64,000 nucleotides of DNA from Escherichia coli (lineage in GTDB: Bacteria; Pseudomonadota; Gammaproteobacteria; Enterobacterales; Enterobacteriaceae), in assembly GCF_045037415.1 (NCBI RefSeq), contig NZ_CP173438.1; one strand, 5' to 3'. A program made the position numbers and the translations under genes. The notes below the pieces were generated by a model. That model did not search any database. It was not told the DNA's origin and saw only the letters and a list, made by a program, of their open reading frames with translations. Of the stretch, positions 49,505 to 62,393 are shown piece by piece (the first letter of the stretch is position 1; every line of letters begins with the position of its first letter).

Positions 49505-52456
49505 ATGTCGGGACAGTTTTCAGTCGGCGTTGTTATCGGCGGGATGATTGGCAGCACATTCCGTTCTGCAATGAGCGGTACCCGCCGTGCGCTTGATTCC
49601 CTGAGCGATACCTCACGCCGCCTGCAGGAACGTCAGAACGCTTTAACCCGTGCAACAGAACGTTATGGTCAACTGGGTTCTTCCCGGATGCAGCATCTCA
49701 ACAGCGAGCTGCTGCGGGTAAGCCGCACCATGGAGCAAATTGAGCGCCAGCAGCGCCGTCTGTCAGCGGCATCCGCTACCAGTGATGCGCTGAAAGCTAA
49801 CCGCATGGCGCTGTATGGTCAGGGGATTGAAGCGTATGGCATGGCACAGACTGTTTATCATACGGTTTCCCCTGCCGTTCAGCAGTCCATGTCTTTTCAG
49901 GACAAAATGATTGATATGTCGATCACCGCAAAATATGACAATAAAACGCGGGATGCACTTGCCGGACAGATAAAAGGCTGGGCGCTTAAATACAATCAGT
50001 ATCAGGATGAGCTGCAGGAGGCGATGGGTTCACTCATCAGCGACAATATTGATAATGTGTCAGATATCGGTTTTCTGATGCCGGATATTGCCCGCGCGGC
50101 AACGGCAACACGCACGTCTGCTCAGGACTGGGCAAAAGTGGCCGCAGTCTGGCAAAACTCCCTGAAAGGCGCGGCCAGAGATTTTGGTGCCGTTCAGAAT
50201 ATTATGGCTTATGCCGGTGACCAGGGGTCATTTGAAATCCCGGATCAGGTCAAGTGGATGCAGTCCCTGGCCCCAATGATGGCGGGTATTGCCAGTGGAA
50301 AAGAGGCTGTTGCTGAAATCGGGGCCAGTCTCCAGATAGCAAAAATCGGTGCAGGTTCCACCGACGAAGCAGCCAATAATTTTAAAAACTTTCTTACCAA
50401 AATTTTTGCCCGCGATACTCAGAAACAGTTTGCTGATCTGGGTATTGATTTGCAGGGATCTATTGCGAGTTATAAAGCTGCGGGGATCTCTCCGATTGAA
50501 GGGATGTTGAGTGTTATAGAACGTTACCTCAATGCCAAAAGCCCCGAAGCGCTGGCCGGCTTCAAATCAGCCATGAAAATAAAGAATGATACGGCAAGAG
50601 ATGAGGCACTTCAGGCTCTGGCGAAAAACTTTGGTCTGGGCGATATGTTCGCGGATATGCAGGTCATGGCATTTATCCGCCCGATGCTGGCCAACATGGA
50701 CAGATATCGAGAGATCCGTGCCGGTGCTCTCAGGGCTGCGGATAACGATTTGCTTGCCAGTGCTTATGATCAGCGGCTGAAATCTCCCCTTGAAGCCACT
50801 AAAACACTTATGGTCAGCAGTCGCGATCTGGCAATTACGCTGGGCGATCAATTAGCTCCATCTTTTATTTCTCTGACTCAGGACTTGCTCCCACTCATTC
50901 AGGGGACAAAACACTGGGTGGCGACTCACCCGCAATTTGTCAGTGGGGCTTTTAAGCTCATCAGTGCGCTCCTTGCGATTAAGATAGCGACTGTTGGTCT
51001 CAAACTGGGGCTGAATCTCCTTATTTCCCCCTTTGTGAACGTCTGGAAAACTGCTGTTTTACTCCGGACCAACTGGCATCGACTGACTACCGCACTCGGA
51101 GAAGGTGGCAAATTACGCTGGCTTGTCACTGGATTCAGCCGACTGACCAGCGGAGGACTGAAACTCAGCAAAGTTCTGGCGGGCAGCCTCGTTCGCGGTT
51201 TTATGAGCGCTGCACGTGCCGTTCTCTGGATTGGGCGAGCGCTGATGATGAATCCCATCGGTCTCGTTATCACCGCTGTCGCGGCAGCAGCTTACCTTAT
51301 CTACCGCAACTGGGGGGCAGTCAGTGGCTGGTTTAAACAGCGCTGGGCTGACATTCAGGAAGCCTTTAACGGCGGTATCGCGGGAACTGGTAAGCTGCTG
51401 ATTAACTGGTCGCCGGCAGGCCTGCTCTATAAAGCCTTTGCGGCTGCGCTGAAATATTTCGGCGTTACTCTGCCGGCAAAGTTCACCGACTTCGGTGGCC
51501 ATCTTATCGACGGTTTGATTAACGGTATCAAAAACAAATGGGGGTCGCTCAAATCCAGTGTAACCGGAATGGGTGACAGCATCAGTAGCTGGTTTAAACA
51601 ATGCTGGGCTGACATTCAGGAAGCCTTTAACGGCGGTATCGCGGGAACTGGTAAGCTGCTGATTAACTGGTCGCCGGCAGGTCTGCTCTATAAAGCCTTT
51701 GCAGCTGCGCTGAAATATCTTGGTGTTGATCTGCCGGCAAAGTTTACCGACTTCGGTGGCCATCTTGTCGATGGTCTGATTAACGGTATCAAAAACAAAT
51801 GGGAGTCGCTCAAATCCAGTGTAACCGGAATGGGCGACAGCATCAGTGGCTGGTTCAGCGAAAAGCTGGGCATTCATTCGCCGAGCCGCGTGTTTATGGG
51901 CTTTGGTGACAATATCGCGCAGGGGGCCGCCATTGGCCTGCAGCGGACCACTCCGCTTGCAGCTCTGGCCGGGCAGCGAATGGCCAGTGAACTGCTCCCC
52001 AGAATGCCCGTGAGCATTCAGGGGCCAGAAATACGGGATAACACTTCAGGTGTTCGCTTCAGTATGCCGTTGCCCGATATCAATGGGTTTATGTCGTCTG
52101 CTAAAAATGCGATCGGAGCCGTAATCAATAGTTTGTCTTCCATGCCCGCTATTCCGCTCTCCACCCGGGCATCGATTTTACCAGGGCAACGTCTGGCAAA
52201 TGAGATGACACCGGATGTTCCCCGTATCCCCTCGCCTGAAATCCTGGCTGCCGGATATTCAGGCCGTGGTGCAGCTGCAACCGGCGGTGGAACGTCTGGT
52301 GGTATCCAGGTCAGCTTTAATCCTCAGTTTTTCCTCAATGGCAGGGAAACCACAGCGCCTGCAGGACTGACTGGTGCCCTGAATATGAGTCTGCATGAGC
52401 TGGAAAAAATGCTGGAGCGTCTGCTGGCTCAGAAACAACGTAAGGAGTACCGCTGA
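49505..52456 (+). CDS. Tail tape measure protein
   Basis: 983 aa; largely helical, internal repeats; located between chaperone and baseplate genes. Confidence 0.8.
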   Translation: MSGQFSVGVVIGGMIGSTFRSAMSGTRRALDSLSDTSRRLQERQNALTRATERYGQLGSSRMQHLNSELLRVSRTMEQIERQQRRLSAASATSDALKANRMALYGQGIEAYGMAQTVYHTVSPAVQQSMSFQDKMIDMSITAKYDNKTRDALAGQIKGWALKYNQYQDELQEAMGSLISDNIDNVSDIGFLMPDIARAATATRTSAQDWAKVAAVWQNSLKGAARDFGAVQNIMAYAGDQGSFEIPDQVKWMQSLAPMMAGIASGKEAVAEIGASLQIAKIGAGSTDEAANNFKNFLTKIFARDTQKQFADLGIDLQGSIASYKAAGISPIEGMLSVIERYLNAKSPEALAGFKSAMKIKNDTARDEALQALAKNFGLGDMFADMQVMAFIRPMLANMDRYREIRAGALRAADNDLLASAYDQRLKSPLEATKTLMVSSRDLAITLGDQLAPSFISLTQDLLPLIQGTKHWVATHPQFVSGAFKLISALLAIKIATVGLKLGLNLLISPFVNVWKTAVLLRTNWHRLTTALGEGGKLRWLVTGFSRLTSGGLKLSKVLAGSLVRGFMSAARAVLWIGRALMMNPIGLVITAVAAAAYLIYRNWGAVSGWFKQRWADIQEAFNGGIAGTGKLLINWSPAGLLYKAFAAALKYFGVTLPAKFTDFGGHLIDGLINGIKNKWGSLKSSVTGMGDSISSWFKQCWADIQEAFNGGIAGTGKLLINWSPAGLLYKAFAAALKYLGVDLPAKFTDFGGHLVDGLINGIKNKWESLKSSVTGMGDSISGWFSEKLGIHSPSRVFMGFGDNIAQGAAIGLQRTTPLAALAGQRMASELLPRMPVSIQGPEIRDNTSGVRFSMPLPDINGFMSSAKNAIGAVINSLSSMPAIPLSTRASILPGQRLANEMTPDVPRIPSPEILAAGYSGRGAAATGGGTSGGIQVSFNPQFFLNGRETTAPAGLTGALNMSLHELEKMLERLLAQKQRKEYR
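51328..51849 (+). repeat. Near-perfect tandem duplication (2 x 261 bp) inside tape measure gene
   Basis: Unit starting ctggtttaaacagcgctgggctgacattcaggaagcc at 51328 recurs at 51589; encodes SWFKQxWADIQEAFNGGIAGTGKLLINWSPAGLLYKAFAAALKY... twice. Confidence 0.85.
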
Positions 52457-56783: not shown

Positions 56784-57354
56784 GCCATTACAACTCCCGC
56801 CACCGCTTGAGGGTGATATCAGTCTCAGGACGCTGGGAAGACTGGCAGGACGGCTGGATAACATCGACCTGAGCGTACTGATGGTCTTTCTCGTCGATAT
56901 CGTCGACAGTTCCGCGCTGCCATGGCTGGGCGAGCAGTTCTCACTGTCTGGCGATGGCTGGGAGCTGGCGGAATCGGACGATGTTCGCCGCATGCTTATA
57001 AAAGCAGCCATCGAACTGCACCGGTATAAAGGGACGCCGTGGTCAATCCGGGAAGTTATCCGCCGTTTTGGCTTTGGTGAAGTGGATCTGATTGAAGGCA
57101 CAGGTCGTCTCAGTTACGACGGCAATCGCAGCTATAACGGACTGTTTGTTCATGGAGATGCAGCCGCCTGGGCAGTTTATCGCGTTATTCTGAAACAGCC
57201 CATTACTAACGATCAGGCCGCGATGCTGCGTCAGACGCTGGCTGCATTTGCACCGGCCCGCTGCCATCTGGCCAGCCTGGAGTATCAGTCTGTGGCCATT
57301 CGCTATAACAATACCGCCATCCATGATGGCAGTTATAACCACGGGAGCAGTTGA
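56776..57354 (+). CDS. Baseplate/tail protein (gpI-like)
   Basis: 192 aa; overlaps J-like stop and fibre start. Confidence 0.5.
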   Translation: MTEPLQLPPPLEGDISLRTLGRLAGRLDNIDLSVLMVFLVDIVDSSALPWLGEQFSLSGDGWELAESDDVRRMLIKAAIELHRYKGTPWSIREVIRRFGFGEVDLIEGTGRLSYDGNRSYNGLFVHGDAAAWAVYRVILKQPITNDQAAMLRQTLAAFAPARCHLASLEYQSVAIRYNNTAIHDGSYNHGSS

Positions 57355-58688
57355 TTATGGGAAACCTGAATGAAACAGAAAAGTGGGAAGAAAATATCTA
57401 TCAACTGGAGACATCAGATCCGGTTCTGGGTGGTGCAGACGGGATATCAAATCGAGCCCCCCGGCAACTGGCAAACAGGACGAAATGGCTGAAGAAGAAA
57501 ACGGAGGAAGCCGCACAGTCACTGGCTGAACACGTACGTTCCCGTAACCACCCGGACGCGACACTGACAGCTAAGGGGTTCACCCAACTGAGCAGTGCCA
57601 CCAACAGCACCTCTGAAACGCTGGCCGCCACACCAAAAGCGGTCAAGGCTGCATACGACCTGGCAGCCGGCAAGGCGCCTGCCAGCCACACTCACCCGTG
57701 GAGTCAGATAACGGGAGTGCCTGCGGCTTCACTGACGGCAAAAGGCACCGTACAACTGAGCAGCGCCACGGACAGTCAATCAGAAACTGAGGCTGCCACG
57801 CCGAAGGCGGTCAAGGCTGCATACGACCTTGCAGCCGGCAAGGCGCCCGTCAGCCACACTCACCCGTGGAGTCAGATAACGGGAGTGCCTGCTGCCTCGC
57901 TGACGGCAAAAGGCACCGTACAATTGAGCAGTGCCATCAACAGCACGTCTGAAATACTGGCCGCCACACCGAAAGCGGTCAAGGCTGCATACGATCTGGC
58001 AAACGGAAAACAACCGGCAGATGCCACGCTCACTGCTCTGGCAGGACTTGCCACTGCAGCAGATCGGTTGCCTTATTTTACCGGAGCAGACCGCGCAGAG
58101 CTGGCAACCCTTACAGCTATTGGTCGCGCTATTATCGCTAAGGGCAGTATAAAAGATGTCCTCAATTACCTTGGTTTAGGAGAAGGCTCGGCGCTACCCG
58201 TTGGTGTGCCTGTTCCGTGGCCCACCGCCACACCGCCAGCAGGCTGGTTAAAGTGCGACGGGCGCGCCTTTACAAAAGAACAATATCCTGTTCTGGCCAG
58301 AGTCTACCCGACCCTCCGTCTTCCCGATTTACGCGGTGAGTTTATCCGTGGATGGGACGACGGGCGCAAAGTTGATACAGGACGTAAGTTGCTGTCCGCA
58401 CAAGGGGCAACGCTGTTAAGAACAGCAATGCTGGATTATTATAACCAGGACACTACGGGAACCTCGGGGATAGTCGGCATGGGATTCAACAATGAAGATT
58501 CCATTACAGACCTTCGTGAGGGCAGCTTTAAAATGCCGGACGGGACAACATTCAGCGATCCTGTCGTGGCAATGTCAGACAATGGTATGCAGGCTACTAT
58601 TCTGACCTCTATCAGAAGCGGGTATGCGAAGGGTATCACTGTCAGACCCCGTAGCATTGCACTTAATTACATTGTGAGGGCAGTTTAA
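57351..58688 (+). CDS. Tail fibre protein (constant N-terminal part fused to variable C-terminal cassette 1)
   Basis: 445 aa; three tandem fibre repeats (TAKG.QLSSAT.S.SE..AATPKAVKAAYDLA.GK); C-terminal part homologous to the two inverted cassettes. Confidence 0.8.
   Translation: MIMGNLNETEKWEENIYQLETSDPVLGGADGISNRAPRQLANRTKWLKKKTEEAAQSLAEHVRSRNHPDATLTAKGFTQLSSATNSTSETLAATPKAVKAAYDLAAGKAPASHTHPWSQITGVPAASLTAKGTVQLSSATDSQSETEAATPKAVKAAYDLAAGKAPVSHTHPWSQITGVPAASLTAKGTVQLSSAINSTSEILAATPKAVKAAYDLANGKQPADATLTALAGLATAADRLPYFTGADRAELATLTAIGRAIIAKGSIKDVLNYLGLGEGSALPVGVPVPWPTATPPAGWLKCDGRAFTKEQYPVLARVYPTLRLPDLRGEFIRGWDDGRKVDTGRKLLSAQGATLLRTAMLDYYNQDTTGTSGIVGMGFNNEDSITDLREGSFKMPDGTTFSDPVVAMSDNGMQATILTSIRSGYAKGITVRPRSIALNYIVRAV
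57561..58005 (+). repeat. Three tandem copies of about 50-aa tail-fibre repeat
   Basis: Protein-level repeat seen directly in the translation. Confidence 0.7.
58160..58185. other. Candidate invertase crossover site 1 (gix/hix-like)
   Basis: TCCTCAATTACC-TT-GGTTTAGGAGAA; right half-site complement TTCTCCTAAACC resembles Gin/Hin half-site TTCCTGTAAACC; at constant/variable junction of fibre gene. Confidence 0.55.
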
Positions 58689-59302
58689 TGAGTAACACTG
58701 CAGTTCTGGATGAAAACGGTATCGCCACTGTAGCGGGCGATATCACTGTATATCACTATGACGAGGAAACCCGGGAATACACCTCATCCTCTGTGGAGTA
58801 TCTCGCCCTTGGGGTGGGTACTCCGGCACATTCGTGCGCCGATGCACCGCCGGAAGCAATTTCGGGTTACGTGGTTTGCCGGACTGCCACGCTGAACGGG
58901 TGGGAGCATGTGCCTGATCACCGCGGCGAGACGGTATACAGCACGGAGAACGGTAACCCCGTTCTGATTACCCAACCGGGTGATTACCCGGCGGACACCA
59001 CCACAAAACAGCCAGCCACGCCATGGGATACCTGGAACGGTGAGGCGTGGGTAACCGATACTGAACGGCAGCGAGCCGCAGAACTGGAGGTTGCCAGACA
59101 GCAACGCCAGCAACGGGTGAAACAGGCGATGGCGTCCGTCGATCTTATCAACCTCAAACTGCGTGCTGGTCGCAGTCTGAAACCAGAAGAAACGGCAAAA
59201 CTGAACGCCGTGCTGGATTATATCGACGAGCTGAACGCACTGGATATCAGCAAGGCACCTGAAATCAGCTGGCCGGAAGCGCCACTGGCGCTTGCCGGCT
59301 GA
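58688..59302 (+). CDS. Tail fibre assembly protein (putative)
   Basis: 204 aa; ATGA-coupled to fibre stop. Confidence 0.5.
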   Translation: MSNTAVLDENGIATVAGDITVYHYDEETREYTSSSVEYLALGVGTPAHSCADAPPEAISGYVVCRTATLNGWEHVPDHRGETVYSTENGNPVLITQPGDYPADTTTKQPATPWDTWNGEAWVTDTERQRAAELEVARQQRQQRVKQAMASVDLINLKLRAGRSLKPEETAKLNAVLDYIDELNALDISKAPEISWPEAPLALAG

Positions 59303-59308
59303 ACGGTA

Positions 59309-59770
59309 TCACGCCGCCCTCACGATATAGTTAAATGCGATATTGCGGGGGCGAGCTGATACATAAGCCCACCAGTCATATCTTTGTGCACCTTTAGAGG
59401 ATGCATCAAATATCCACTTTTTGCCATTTAAGACCCCCAGTTGATTAGAGGTTAAAGCGTCACCAAATCCGTATTGTGTAGAGCCGAGCGAACTGATATC
59501 TCCGGTATCATTATCATCAAAACCGGATACGATAGTCCCTTCCTGAAATGAAAGTAGCGCACGCCCGGTATCAACCTTGCGACCACCGTCCCATCCACGG
59601 ATAAACTCACCGCGCAAATCGGGAAGACGGAGGGTCGGGTAGACTCTGACCAGAACAGGATATTGTTCTTTGGTGAACGTAGCTCCGTTGCACTGTAACC
59701 AGCCTGCTGGCGGTGTGGCGGTGGGCCATGGAACCGGTACACCAACAGGCAATGCAGAGCCTTCCCCCAA
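59309..59770 (-). CDS. Alternative tail-fibre C-terminal cassette 2 (inverted, promoterless)
   Basis: 153 aa; begins GEGSALPVGVPVPWPTATPPAGWL..., ends RPRNIAFNYIVRAA, both matching the resident fibre C-terminus; starts at crossover site 2. Confidence 0.6.
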   Translation of the reverse strand: MGEGSALPVGVPVPWPTATPPAGWLQCNGATFTKEQYPVLVRVYPTLRLPDLRGEFIRGWDGGRKVDTGRALLSFQEGTIVSGFDDNDTGDISSLGSTQYGFGDALTSNQLGVLNGKKWIFDASSKGAQRYDWWAYVSARPRNIAFNYIVRAA

Positions 59771-59787
59771 ACCAACGTTTCTATGCC
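59762..59787. other. Candidate invertase crossover site 2 (inverted relative to site 1)
   Basis: TTCCCCCAAACC-AA-CGTTTCTATGCC. Confidence 0.5.
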
Positions 59788-60209
59788 GCCCTTACGATGT
59801 AATTAAACGCAATGTTACGGGGACGAATGGTCACATAATTAACCCCATCGCCTCGCGAAGGACCTGCAAATGAAAAACGGGAGAATCCAGGTTGGTTGTC
59901 AACGATTTGGTCATAGTTATTGATTGAATGACCAGACCCAATGTCAAAATTACCTGCGTAATGAGAAAAACTTGTACCATCCTGCCGTGAAAGCAGATCG
60001 CGCCCTGTATCCACTTTTCGCCCGTCGTCCCATCCACGGATAAACTCACCGCGTAAATCGGGAAGACGGAGGGTCGGGTAGACTCTGGCCAGAACAGGAT
60101 ATTGTTCTTTTGTAAAGGCGCGCCCGTCGCACTTTAACCAGCCTGCTGGCGGTGTGGCAGTGGGCCACGGAACAGGTACACCAACGGGCAGCGCCGAGCC
60201 TTCCCCCAA
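59781..60209 (-). CDS. Alternative tail-fibre C-terminal cassette 3 (inverted, promoterless)
   Basis: 142 aa; first 70 residues nearly identical to the resident variable part; ends RPRNIAFNYIVRAA. Confidence 0.6.
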   Translation of the reverse strand: MGEGSALPVGVPVPWPTATPPAGWLKCDGRAFTKEQYPVLARVYPTLRLPDLRGEFIRGWDDGRKVDTGRDLLSRQDGTSFSHYAGNFDIGSGHSINNYDQIVDNQPGFSRFSFAGPSRGDGVNYVTIRPRNIAFNYIVRAA

Positions 60210-60227
60210 ACCAACGTTTATCTCTCA
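60202..60227. other. Candidate invertase crossover site 3 (same orientation as site 2)
   Basis: TTCCCCCAAACC-AA-CGTTTATCTCTC; immediately upstream of invertase gene. Confidence 0.5.
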
Positions 60228-60280
60228 AATCCTCCCCACATTATCTCAGTACTTTAACCACTCAAAAGGGAGTATTTTTA

Positions 60281-60853
60281 ATGCTGATTGGCTACATACG
60301 TGTGTCAACAAATGACCAAAACACAGATTTGCAACGCAATGCATTAATGTGCGCAGGATGTGAACAGATTTTTGAGGACAAAATGAGCGGAACCAAGTCG
60401 GAACGACCAGGCCTGAAACGCGCTTTAAAGTGCCTTAAAAGAGGGGATACATTGGTGGTCTGGAAGCTGGATCGGTTGGGTAGAAGAATGAAACACCTCA
60501 TTGCTCTCACAGAAGAGCTACGCGCAAAAGGTGTCAATTTTCGCAGTCTGACGGATTCAATCGATACCAGCACTCCGATGGGAAGGTTCTTTTTTCATAT
60601 GATGGGTGCACTGGCAGAAATGGAGCGTGAACTGATAGTTGAGCGCACGCTGGCTGGACTGGCTGCTGCGCGAGCACAAGGAAGAGTTGGAGGACGTCGC
60701 CCGAAACTGACGAAGGAGCAGCATGAGCAGATCGCAAGATTGCTCCAGAAAGGGTATGACAGAAAGCGGCTGGCAATTATCTATGATATTGGACTGTCAA
60801 CGATCTACCGCTATCACCCTGTTGGGACTGTCATAACGCAACCTGAAATGTAA
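60281..60853 (+). CDS. Serine-recombinase DNA invertase (Gin/Hin/Pin/Cin family)
   Basis: Within ORF 60152..60853; ATG at 60281 after SD aaaggga; N-terminal MLIGYIRVSTNDQNTDLQ with catalytic Ser; C-terminal HTH. Confidence 0.85.
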   Translation: MLIGYIRVSTNDQNTDLQRNALMCAGCEQIFEDKMSGTKSERPGLKRALKCLKRGDTLVVWKLDRLGRRMKHLIALTEELRAKGVNFRSLTDSIDTSTPMGRFFFHMMGALAEMERELIVERTLAGLAAARAQGRVGGRRPKLTKEQHEQIARLLQKGYDRKRLAIIYDIGLSTIYRYHPVGTVITQPEM

Positions 60854-61108: not shown

Positions 61109-62393
61109 TCAGCCGGGTTGACTTATCCGCGCCAATTGCTCGAAATAGTCTGGAAAAGTTTTAGCGGTACATTTTGGATCAAGAATCGTCACAGGCGTAT
61201 CTGATAATGCGACCAGCGAGAAACACATCGCCATCCGGTGATCATTATAAGTGGCGATCTCAGCAAATTTCAGTTTTTCCGGTGGCGTAATGCGAATGAA
61301 ATCATGCCCCTCTTCGACTTCCGCACCGACTTTACGCAGTTCTGTTGCCATCGCAAACAGGCGATCGGTTCTCTTTAACACGCCAGTTATAGATATTGCG
61401 CAGCGTGGTGGTGCCTTTTGCAAATAACGCCGCGGTGGCAATGGTCATCGCCGCATCGGGAATATGGTTCATATCCATATCAATGGCGTTCAGTTCACCA
61501 CGCGTGCAGGAAATATAATCATCGCCCCAGCAAATGGTCGCGCCCATTTTTTCCAGAACATCAGCAAAGCGAATATCACCCTGCATACTGTTGCGTCCAA
61601 TGCCGGTCACTTTTACAGTGCCGCCTCTGATTGCTGCTGCTGCCAGGAAATAAGAAGCCGAAGATGCATCGCCTTCAACCAAATAAGTGCCCGGAGACTG
61701 GTAAGACTGCCCCCCTTTTACGACAAATTGTTGATAGTGCTGATTTTCAATTTCAACACCAAACGTCTTCATCAGATTGAGGGTGATATCGATATAAGGT
61801 TTAGAAACCAGATCGCCTTTAATACGAATCACCGTATCTTCCGGCGCAAGAGGCGCAGTCATTAACAGTGCGGTGAGGAACTGGCTGGAAACGGAGCCAT
61901 CAACATCAACGTTGCCGCCAGTAAAGCCGCCCTGTAAACGCAATGGCGGATAATTTTCTTGTTCCAGGTAAGTGATCTTCGCCCCGCCCTGGCGCAGCGC
62001 ATCCACCAGATGACCAATCGGGCGTTCTTTCATTCGCGGTTCACCGCTCAGTACAATATCATTGCTACCCAGGCAAAGTGCTGCCGCCAGCGGACGCATT
62101 GCCGTTCCGGCGTTACCGAGGAACAACTCCCGGGCACTTTCTGCGTGTAATGGACCACCGTTACCGATAATTTCGCAACGCGTACGATCGGCTGAAAGCG
62201 TATAGCTTACCCCTAACGCTGTTAATGCATTCAGCATATGGCGCACGTCATCGCTATCCAGCAGATTGGTTAATACTGTTTTGCCGTGTGCTAATGCCGC
62301 CAGCAATAAAGCGCGGTTAGAAACGCTCTTGGAACCGGGCAGATTAATAGTGCCATCGACACGAGCGATGGGTTGTAACGTTAGGGATTCCAT
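61109..62393 (-). pseudogene. aroA: aroA (EPSP synthase) with internal +1 frameshift
   Basis: N-terminal 353 codons (61332..62393) read ...NIYNWRVKE then go out of frame; AroA sequence resumes as [16 protein letters not shown]... in ORF 61109..61441. Consistent with a 1-bp insertion at the GGTT at 61367..61370. Confidence 0.75.

Follow-up and report, generated by a model that had tools for sequence, protein, structure and literature searches.

Tail fibres of Mu-like and P1-like phages

The tail fibre of phage Mu, S (gp49), is encoded between gene I (gp48) and a fibre assembly gene, and consists of a constant N-terminal part and a C-terminal part that can be switched by the adjacent serine invertase Gin, the alternatives being present as two Sv/U pairs. 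It contains a single unit of the PF03406 motif, at aa 112-152. The fibre lies along the sheath, with the N-terminus of gp49 bound to a loop of the wedge protein gp48 (PMC11915804). In the phage-plasmids of the P1/p15B type, a fibre gene S is likewise found together with a serine invertase, Cin or Min. The work on P2, P1 and p15B in the early 1990s led to the view of fibre genes as evolving through exchange at motifs that they share. [quoted passage not shown]

The fibre gene described here shares with Mu S the order of the genes, the division into a constant N-terminal and a switchable C-terminal part, and the adjacent serine invertase, but it carries three PF03406 units (up to ten in its relatives) where Mu S has one, it is served by three crossover sites and one assembly gene instead of two Sv/U pairs, and it belongs to a prophage that is BcepMu-like and not Mu proper. 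With the S genes of the P1/p15B type it has in common the same 56-aa and 44-aa units, the segment that follows them, the crossover region and a related invertase, whereas the N-terminal region of the latter, of about 400 aa, is unrelated, and their host element is a plasmid prophage and not a transposable one. The motif is also that of lambda Stf and of the EHEC proteins; in contrast to these, the array of the present fibre consists of units alone, placed head to tail. That such fibres contain this domain, that they are repetitive and that they evolve as mosaics is already known and is ordinary phage biology. The new findings are small ones: a series of alleles with 3 to 10 units in fibres that are otherwise identical, a single event, resolved cleanly, that indicates an unequal exchange, and a conserved, optional His-x-His insert that separates the 56-aa from the 44-aa units.

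The prophage and its fibre gene

The window, a stretch of 64,000 nucleotides from an Escherichia coli contig (NZ_CP173438.1), contains a 37-kb Mu-like (BcepMu-type) transposable prophage of E. coli ST131, inserted between aroA and ycaL. The prophage spans about 23880-61100; in other strains it is found at unrelated sites (by ddpB, by rstA, and inside a FHIPEP gene), as is expected of a transposable phage. Escherichia phage PhiKM, which comes from uropathogenic E. coli and is a transposable phage of the Bcepmuvirus type, matches positions 23887-58303 at 99.9-100% identity and has a fibre that is 100% identical. The fibre gene is also 100% identical in many ST131 (O25b:H4) chromosomes, and its protein is found unchanged in hundreds of database records.

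The gene follows the baseplate genes D-V-W-J-I and precedes the gene of the assembly protein. Its reading frame opens at a TTG (57351), and the RefSeq start in identical genes is the ATG at 57357, which gives a protein of 443 aa. The protein matches PHROG tail fibre families (best E 5e-145), and its C-terminal part matches T4 gp37 and a short tail fibre in the PDB. By analogy with the docking of Mu gp49 on gp48, the 67-aa N-terminus is most likely the baseplate anchor. The parts of the gene outside the repeats and the gene that follows it are:

57351..58688, + strand, tail fibre gene, the analogue of Mu S and P2 H (from the ORF list, the PHROG families and the gene order)
57357..57557, + strand, N-terminal 67 aa, the putative baseplate anchor, identical in the nine loci tabulated at any unit count
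58020..58163, + strand, post-repeat constant segment (…GKQPADATLTALAGLATAADRLPYFTGADRA…IKDVLNY), conserved in all alleles
58187..58688, + strand, variable C-terminal receptor-binding part with a tail collar domain (PF07484 at aa 285-332)
58688..59302, + strand, tail fibre assembly protein (PF02413, E 5.6e-27; phrog_105)

The repeat array

Between the N-terminus and the post-repeat segment lie three tandem units in one reading frame (57558-58019), two of 56 aa and a terminal core of 42 aa:

57558..57725, + strand, repeat unit 1, 56 aa, PF03406 core with HxH insert
57687..57695, + strand, His-Thr-His of unit 1, candidate inter-chain metal site (read from the sequence)
57726..57893, + strand, repeat unit 2, 56 aa, PF03406 core with HxH insert
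57855..57863, + strand, His-Thr-His of unit 2, candidate inter-chain metal site (on the same basis as in unit 1)
57894..58019, + strand, repeat unit 3, the terminal 42-aa core only, without HxH insert

Counted from the ATG at 57357, the units occupy aa 68-123, 124-179 and 180-221. PF03406 (Phage_fiber_2, “Phage tail fibre repeat”) matches all three of them, with an E value of 5.4e-56 and 186.4 bits against a gathering cut-off of 22. In the DNA, Tandem Repeats Finder reported 57585-58001 with a period of 168 nt, 2.5 copies, 84% matches and a score of 650, and a repeat search gave copies in register at 57562-57729, 57730-57897 and 57898-58065, of which the second and third are 83% and 65% identical to the first; unit by unit, the DNA of unit 2 is 82-83% identical to that of unit 1 and shares with it an exact run of 42 nt. 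A search of all frames of the 64-kb window revealed no further copies of the motif.

The preliminary description had reported three tandem copies of a motif of roughly 50 aa at 57561-58005. Their presence was established by all three methods, but the array is made of two full units and one core, since the third copy is without the 14-aa tail “SHTHPWSQITGVPA”, and the measured period of 56 aa replaces the earlier estimate. The terminal core unit is the same in every allele compared.

The inversion system downstream of the array

The constant part of the fibre ends at a putative crossover site, beyond which a DNA-inversion region is recognizable:

58164..58186, + strand, putative DNA-inversion crossover site AATTACCTTGGTTTAGGAGAAGG at the end of the constant part, a unique exact match in the window
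59309..59770, − strand, alternative fibre C-terminus of 153 aa, promoterless and inverted, with a collar domain (I2, 85%)
59781..60209, − strand, second alternative fibre C-terminus, of 142 aa, promoterless and inverted, with a collar domain (I1, 94%)
60281..60853, + strand, serine DNA invertase of the Gin/Cin/Min type (PF00239 Resolvase, E 8e-51, and PF02796 HTH_7)

Related copies of the site in inverted orientation are present at about 60225-60200 and about 59785-59760, before the two alternative C-termini on the minus strand, and a 229-nt arm (58168-58396) has inverted copies at 59989-60217 (I1, 94%) and at 59550-59778 (I2, 85%). The locus thus has the adjacent serine invertase, the crossover inverted repeats inside the fibre frame and the alternative C-termini on the opposite strand that are characteristic of the Din family, but not an assembly gene of its own for each alternative C-terminus, as in the Sv-U and Sv'-U' pairs of Mu: there is a single one, at 58688-59302. 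Other C-termini are fused to the same constant part in L003, L006 and L007 and in the protein P0120 (from an O25b:H4 strain, with a 3-unit constant part), which means that the inversion occurs in nature; in L003 and in P0120 (417 aa) it is the 142-aa end that is joined. The array lies upstream of both the crossover site and the 229-nt arm, and its earlier assignment to the constant part of the fibre was therefore correct.

The region 58164-60853 taken as a whole has three crossover sites, three alternative C-termini and one assembly gene, and when the 142-aa or the 153-aa end is fused to the fibre, the assembly gene is oriented the wrong way. It may be, therefore, that these short ends need no chaperone of their own for folding, or that they borrow one.

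Unit number in related prophages

Fibres were compared in complete E. coli genomes in which the gene has the same gpI neighbour, WP_000138756.1 (in L006 under a different accession). Their first 67 aa are identical and their post-repeat segment is the same, yet these fibres contain 3, 5, 6, 7 or 10 units:

3 units, the window allele
5 units, L003, L005, L006, L007, L008 and L012
6 units, L010
7 units, L009
10 units, L004, a fibre of 787 aa

A search of the protein database with the constant part gave proteins with the same N-terminus (MGNLNETEKWEE…) and 3 to 8 matches to the motif, spaced 56 or 44 aa apart, several of which scored above the 100%-identical self match because they have more units; four-unit forms (471 aa) are abundant in that database. 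For a wider sample, the left flank was joined to the right flank as a query, so that the length of the array could be read as the span of the match. Both flanks were present in 593 genomes, and the array lengths read in 31 evenly spaced rows with two flanks were:

445 nt (3 units), 18 of 31 genomes
745 or 781 nt (5 units), 6 of 31 genomes
877 nt (6 units), 2 of 31 genomes
1045 or 1117 nt (7 units), 5 of 31 genomes

All of the differences in length are sums of whole 132-nt or 168-nt units, and all are in frame. The suggestion of the preliminary description that the copy number is variable is thereby borne out by the comparison of related prophages, with 3, 5, 6, 7 and 10 units on identical flanks and one clean event of 300 nt (see below). 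An invariant number, or a match to a standard domain count, was also looked for, and neither was found. A profile search with one unit retrieved 5144 representative proteins, in which PF03406 is present in 2 to about 23 units as counted by the tool's matched stretches, or 2 to 18 on a recount, and a standard domain count thus does not exist. The spacing of the units in this family peaks at 44 aa (119 cases) and at 56 aa (54 cases).

The differences in copy number could be ascribed to faulty assembly, or the true count might be a fixed standard number, since many of the database proteins are “partial”, short-read contigs break in or after this region, and one nanopore-era genome (L002) is frameshifted inside the array. 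We consider this hardly credible, because complete genomes that are independent of each other have array lengths in common (1117 nt, for instance, in four strains), because the alleles differ by exact whole units in a sequence that is otherwise identical, and because short-read contigs also span arrays of 6-7 units. The L002 locus itself (NZ_CP124492.1, 3007-5108) has at least 5 units, then the frameshift, and then fragments; it may be a longer array hurt by a sequencing error, or a true pseudogene.

How units are gained or lost

The units of the arrays are 132 or 168 nt in length and 80-100% identical in their DNA, so that unequal homologous exchange (or slippage) could add or remove whole units in frame. 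The strain SCU-313 made it feasible to follow one such change to the nucleotide. The 3-unit gene of the window equals the 5-unit gene of SCU-313 minus exactly 300 nt and is otherwise identical to it over 1050 nt, and the exact window sequence is obtained whichever of 30 consecutive offsets is chosen for cutting 300 nt out of the SCU-313 gene. The equivalence of these 30 offsets places the junction inside a 29-nt tract of perfect identity between units:

57612..57641, + strand, junction tract of the 300-nt event (alignment of SCU-313 with the window)

The 10 kb around the SCU-313 fibre gene are 99.9% identical to the window, and the SCU-313 prophage is at a different site, by ddpB. The 300-nt difference indicates what is probably one unequal homologous exchange. 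A deletion from 5 to 3 units is tentatively favoured over the reverse event, on the single ground that the 3-unit allele has no unit of the 44-aa type. Other alleles contain perfect or nearly perfect larger repeats: a 300-nt block, made of a 44-aa and a 56-aa unit, is present at 100% DNA identity twice in L010 and four times in L004, and a 336-nt block is repeated in L009 at 99-100% identity. As read from the alignments, such blocks, which are recent amplifications, and the 300-nt event are the traces that unequal homologous exchange between units, or their slippage, would probably leave.

The rate of these changes can be judged from ST131. In each of the 23 ST131 rows sampled the match was one unbroken collinear stretch, with an identity of 99.8-100% overall and of 100.0% in 22 rows, and a collinear match was found in up to 369 genomes. 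The constancy of this allele across ST131 means that the changes are rare, and that the polymorphism is a slow one and not phase variation; it could be nearly neutral. Long and near-perfect direct repeats, with blocks of 100% identity in some alleles, would also be expected if the array were programmed for high-frequency change in the manner of a phase-variable contingency locus. Such a role is largely refuted and very unlikely, given the collinearity of the ST131 rows and of the other collinear genomes, units of 132-168 nt that are far longer than the typical repeats of contingency loci, and the fact that every variant stays in frame, which leaves no room for on/off switching.

The array as a joint between fibre modules

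In the P1-like phage-plasmid pGF60-C the fibre, a protein of 960 aa, contains a tandem array of 8 units, again of the 56-aa and the 44-aa type, followed by a post-repeat segment that is near-identical to that of the window (about three substitutions relative to the fibre of the P1-like phage-plasmid), by the crossover region and by an invertase. The similarity of the two proteins starts at the first unit (aa 66 of the window fibre) and extends through the post-repeat segment and the crossover site, with 82.5% DNA and 89% protein identity over the shared part, whereas the N-termini, of about 400 aa in pGF60-C and 67 aa in the window fibre, are unrelated. P2-type fibres are about 80% identical to the window fibre in their DNA over one unit only, and in the representative proteins P0122 and P0124 the same units stand behind a different N-terminal domain. 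The sharing of units with pGF60-C and with the P2-type fibres suggests that the array is a place where anchor modules and receptor-binding modules are joined in mosaic fashion, a role compatible with a tuning of length, and this fits the long-standing view of exchange at shared fibre motifs.

Three further matches, H32-H34, in which the query aligned from position 235 only, were considered as fibres with a different N-terminus and rejected, H32 being a 5-unit Mu-like fibre aligned out of register; the true mosaic example is the match to the P1-like plasmid, H38.

It is conceivable, though on balance somewhat improbable, that the array is chiefly such a recombination joint, at which Mu-like, P1-like, P2-like and lambdoid phages swap receptor-binding ends, and that the variation in copy number is a by-product and not a selected adjustment of length. 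The exact start of the pGF60-C similarity at the first unit, with unrelated N-termini before it, would be explained in this way, as would the single unit shared with P2-type fibres and the other N-terminal domain of P0122 and P0124. However, the perfect amplification of blocks in single alleles arises within a gene and not by exchange between phages, and a joint is in any case compatible with length tuning.

The HxH insert

What distinguishes the 56-aa from the 44-aa units is the insert “SHTHPWSQITGVP”. In trimeric fibres and spikes, HxH motifs form buried octahedral iron sites that are thought to keep the three chains in register (PMC6116203), examples being the shaft of the R1/R2 pyocin fibre, the T4 gp37 needle and P2 gpV. 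As in these proteins, the window fibre has a His-x-His motif in a trimeric fibre protein that is conserved in diverse homologues; unlike in them, each 56-aa unit has one copy of the motif and the 44-aa units have none, and its role in metal binding is putative. Among diverse members of the PF03406 family, H-x-H is present in 90 of 380 linkers between units, usually as H-x-H-x-W-x-Q-I-T-G-x-P. The pattern H-x-H-x-W...P is invariant in 13 of 13 diverse two-unit segments, an invariance that is partly built in, since all of the segments were picked for having the insert. By analogy with the known iron sites, we propose that the 12-aa HxH insert of the 56-aa units may hold a metal in a buried site and in this way keep the three chains in register.

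PDB searches by sequence and by profile returned only the one-unit entries of Mu S and matches to the collar domain, and the HxH insert was in no entry. AlphaFold2 was applied to the full fibre as a single sequence, with a mean pLDDT of 36, and to a linked trimer of a two-unit segment (three copies joined by 40-residue Gly/Ser linkers, with a matched alignment of 13 rows), with a pLDDT of 29. In both of these low-confidence models “KGxVQLSS” forms a short hairpin and “PKAVKAAYDLA” a helix, which is to be taken as a hint only.

A proposed role in stalk length

The array is situated between the putative 67-aa baseplate anchor and a receptor-binding end that could be swapped by the Gin-type invertase. 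With an invariant anchor on one side and a switchable end on the other, added units should lengthen the stalk. The steps may be pictured as follows: unequal exchange or slippage between similar units would generate the 3 to 10 units of related prophages, each unit would add a fixed increment to a trimeric stalk, the copy number would thereby set the distance of the tip from the baseplate, and the His-x-His insert of the 56-aa unit would form a buried metal site that aligns the three chains. The array, its position, the polymorphism in copy number and the 300-nt event are seen directly in the sequences, and the explanation as a whole is quite probable; a stalk whose length is set by the units is the proposed part of it.

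That the array forms a shaft, as the preliminary description had put it, and how much each unit would contribute to it, we infer from the position of the array and by analogy with published fibres. The R2 pyocin fibre is about 340 Å in length, for 691 residues as inferred from the domain numbering given (PMC6116203), and for the Sf14 fibres the published lengths are about 430 Å (391 aa) and about 630 Å (792 aa) (PMC11821841). From these published fibres a scale of about 0.5-1.1 Å per residue was used, on which the gain would be roughly 3-6 nm per 56-aa unit and roughly 17-38 nm for the step from 3 to 10 units.

The same units could instead be ligand-binding modules, for example weak binders of glycans, of which more copies would confer avidity for the cell surface. 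From unit to unit the core changes at three residues (TNSTSETL, TDSQSETE, INSTSEIL) and is otherwise almost constant, and the globular bead suggested by rotary shadowing for the Pf2 region (PMC3368898) would also suit such a role. It is nevertheless an improbable one, since the units lie in the constant part beside the anchor, far from the receptor-binding tip, and since the same unit sequences go with different receptor-binding ends.

The length-setting role can be carried one step further, to a molecular ruler under selection, in which the 56-aa units are the metal-clamped nodes of a beaded trimeric stalk; we regard this stronger proposal as rather unlikely. If it were true, the units would tune the reach of the tip through O-antigen or capsule, or the packing of the folded fibre along the sheath, and the host range could be adjusted independently of the switching of receptor-binding ends by the invertase. 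The short 3-unit allele fixed in ST131 would then be an adaptation to the surface of that lineage. A search of the literature on fibre repeats, copy number and host range found nothing directly relevant.

The natural series of alleles (3, 4, 5, 6, 7 and 10 units) is well suited to testing stalk length against adsorption or host range, and the array offers a natural splice point for the engineering of chimeric fibres or tailocins. The practical value is modest, and the current understanding of phage fibres is unchanged.

Annotation of the fibre gene and other features of the prophage

The results also explain why the fibre gene is so often broken, truncated or mis-annotated in assemblies. Many partial database proteins stop exactly at the crossover site, and the repeat, together with the breaking of contigs at the inversion site, is a plausible source of the misannotation of the fibre. 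In strain 4/1-1 (L011, 8395-9528), RefSeq splits an intact and 100% identical fibre gene into an “incomplete” pseudogene fragment and a “phage tail protein”, and many partial database copies of the fibre carry the name “short-chain fatty acid transporter”; the fragment calls and the latter name look like annotation errors.

At the edge of the prophage, aroA (61109-62393, − strand) is broken into two open reading frames by one extra T at about 61369. This T, which gives the gene 1285 nt against 1284 nt in the intact form, is the sole difference between the window and strain 4/1-1 over 14.8 kb; it may be a sequencing error in a short run of T, or a true frameshift of the source strain.

Within the prophage, the tape measure gene contains a tandem duplication of 261 nt (87 aa) at 51321-51855, with 93% matches. 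The duplication coincides exactly with a sequencing gap in the PhiKM record, and the gene is 2952 nt long in all three relatives for which a length is shown. Since the length of the tape measure sets the length of the tail, the duplication is a second length-determining repeat in the same virion.
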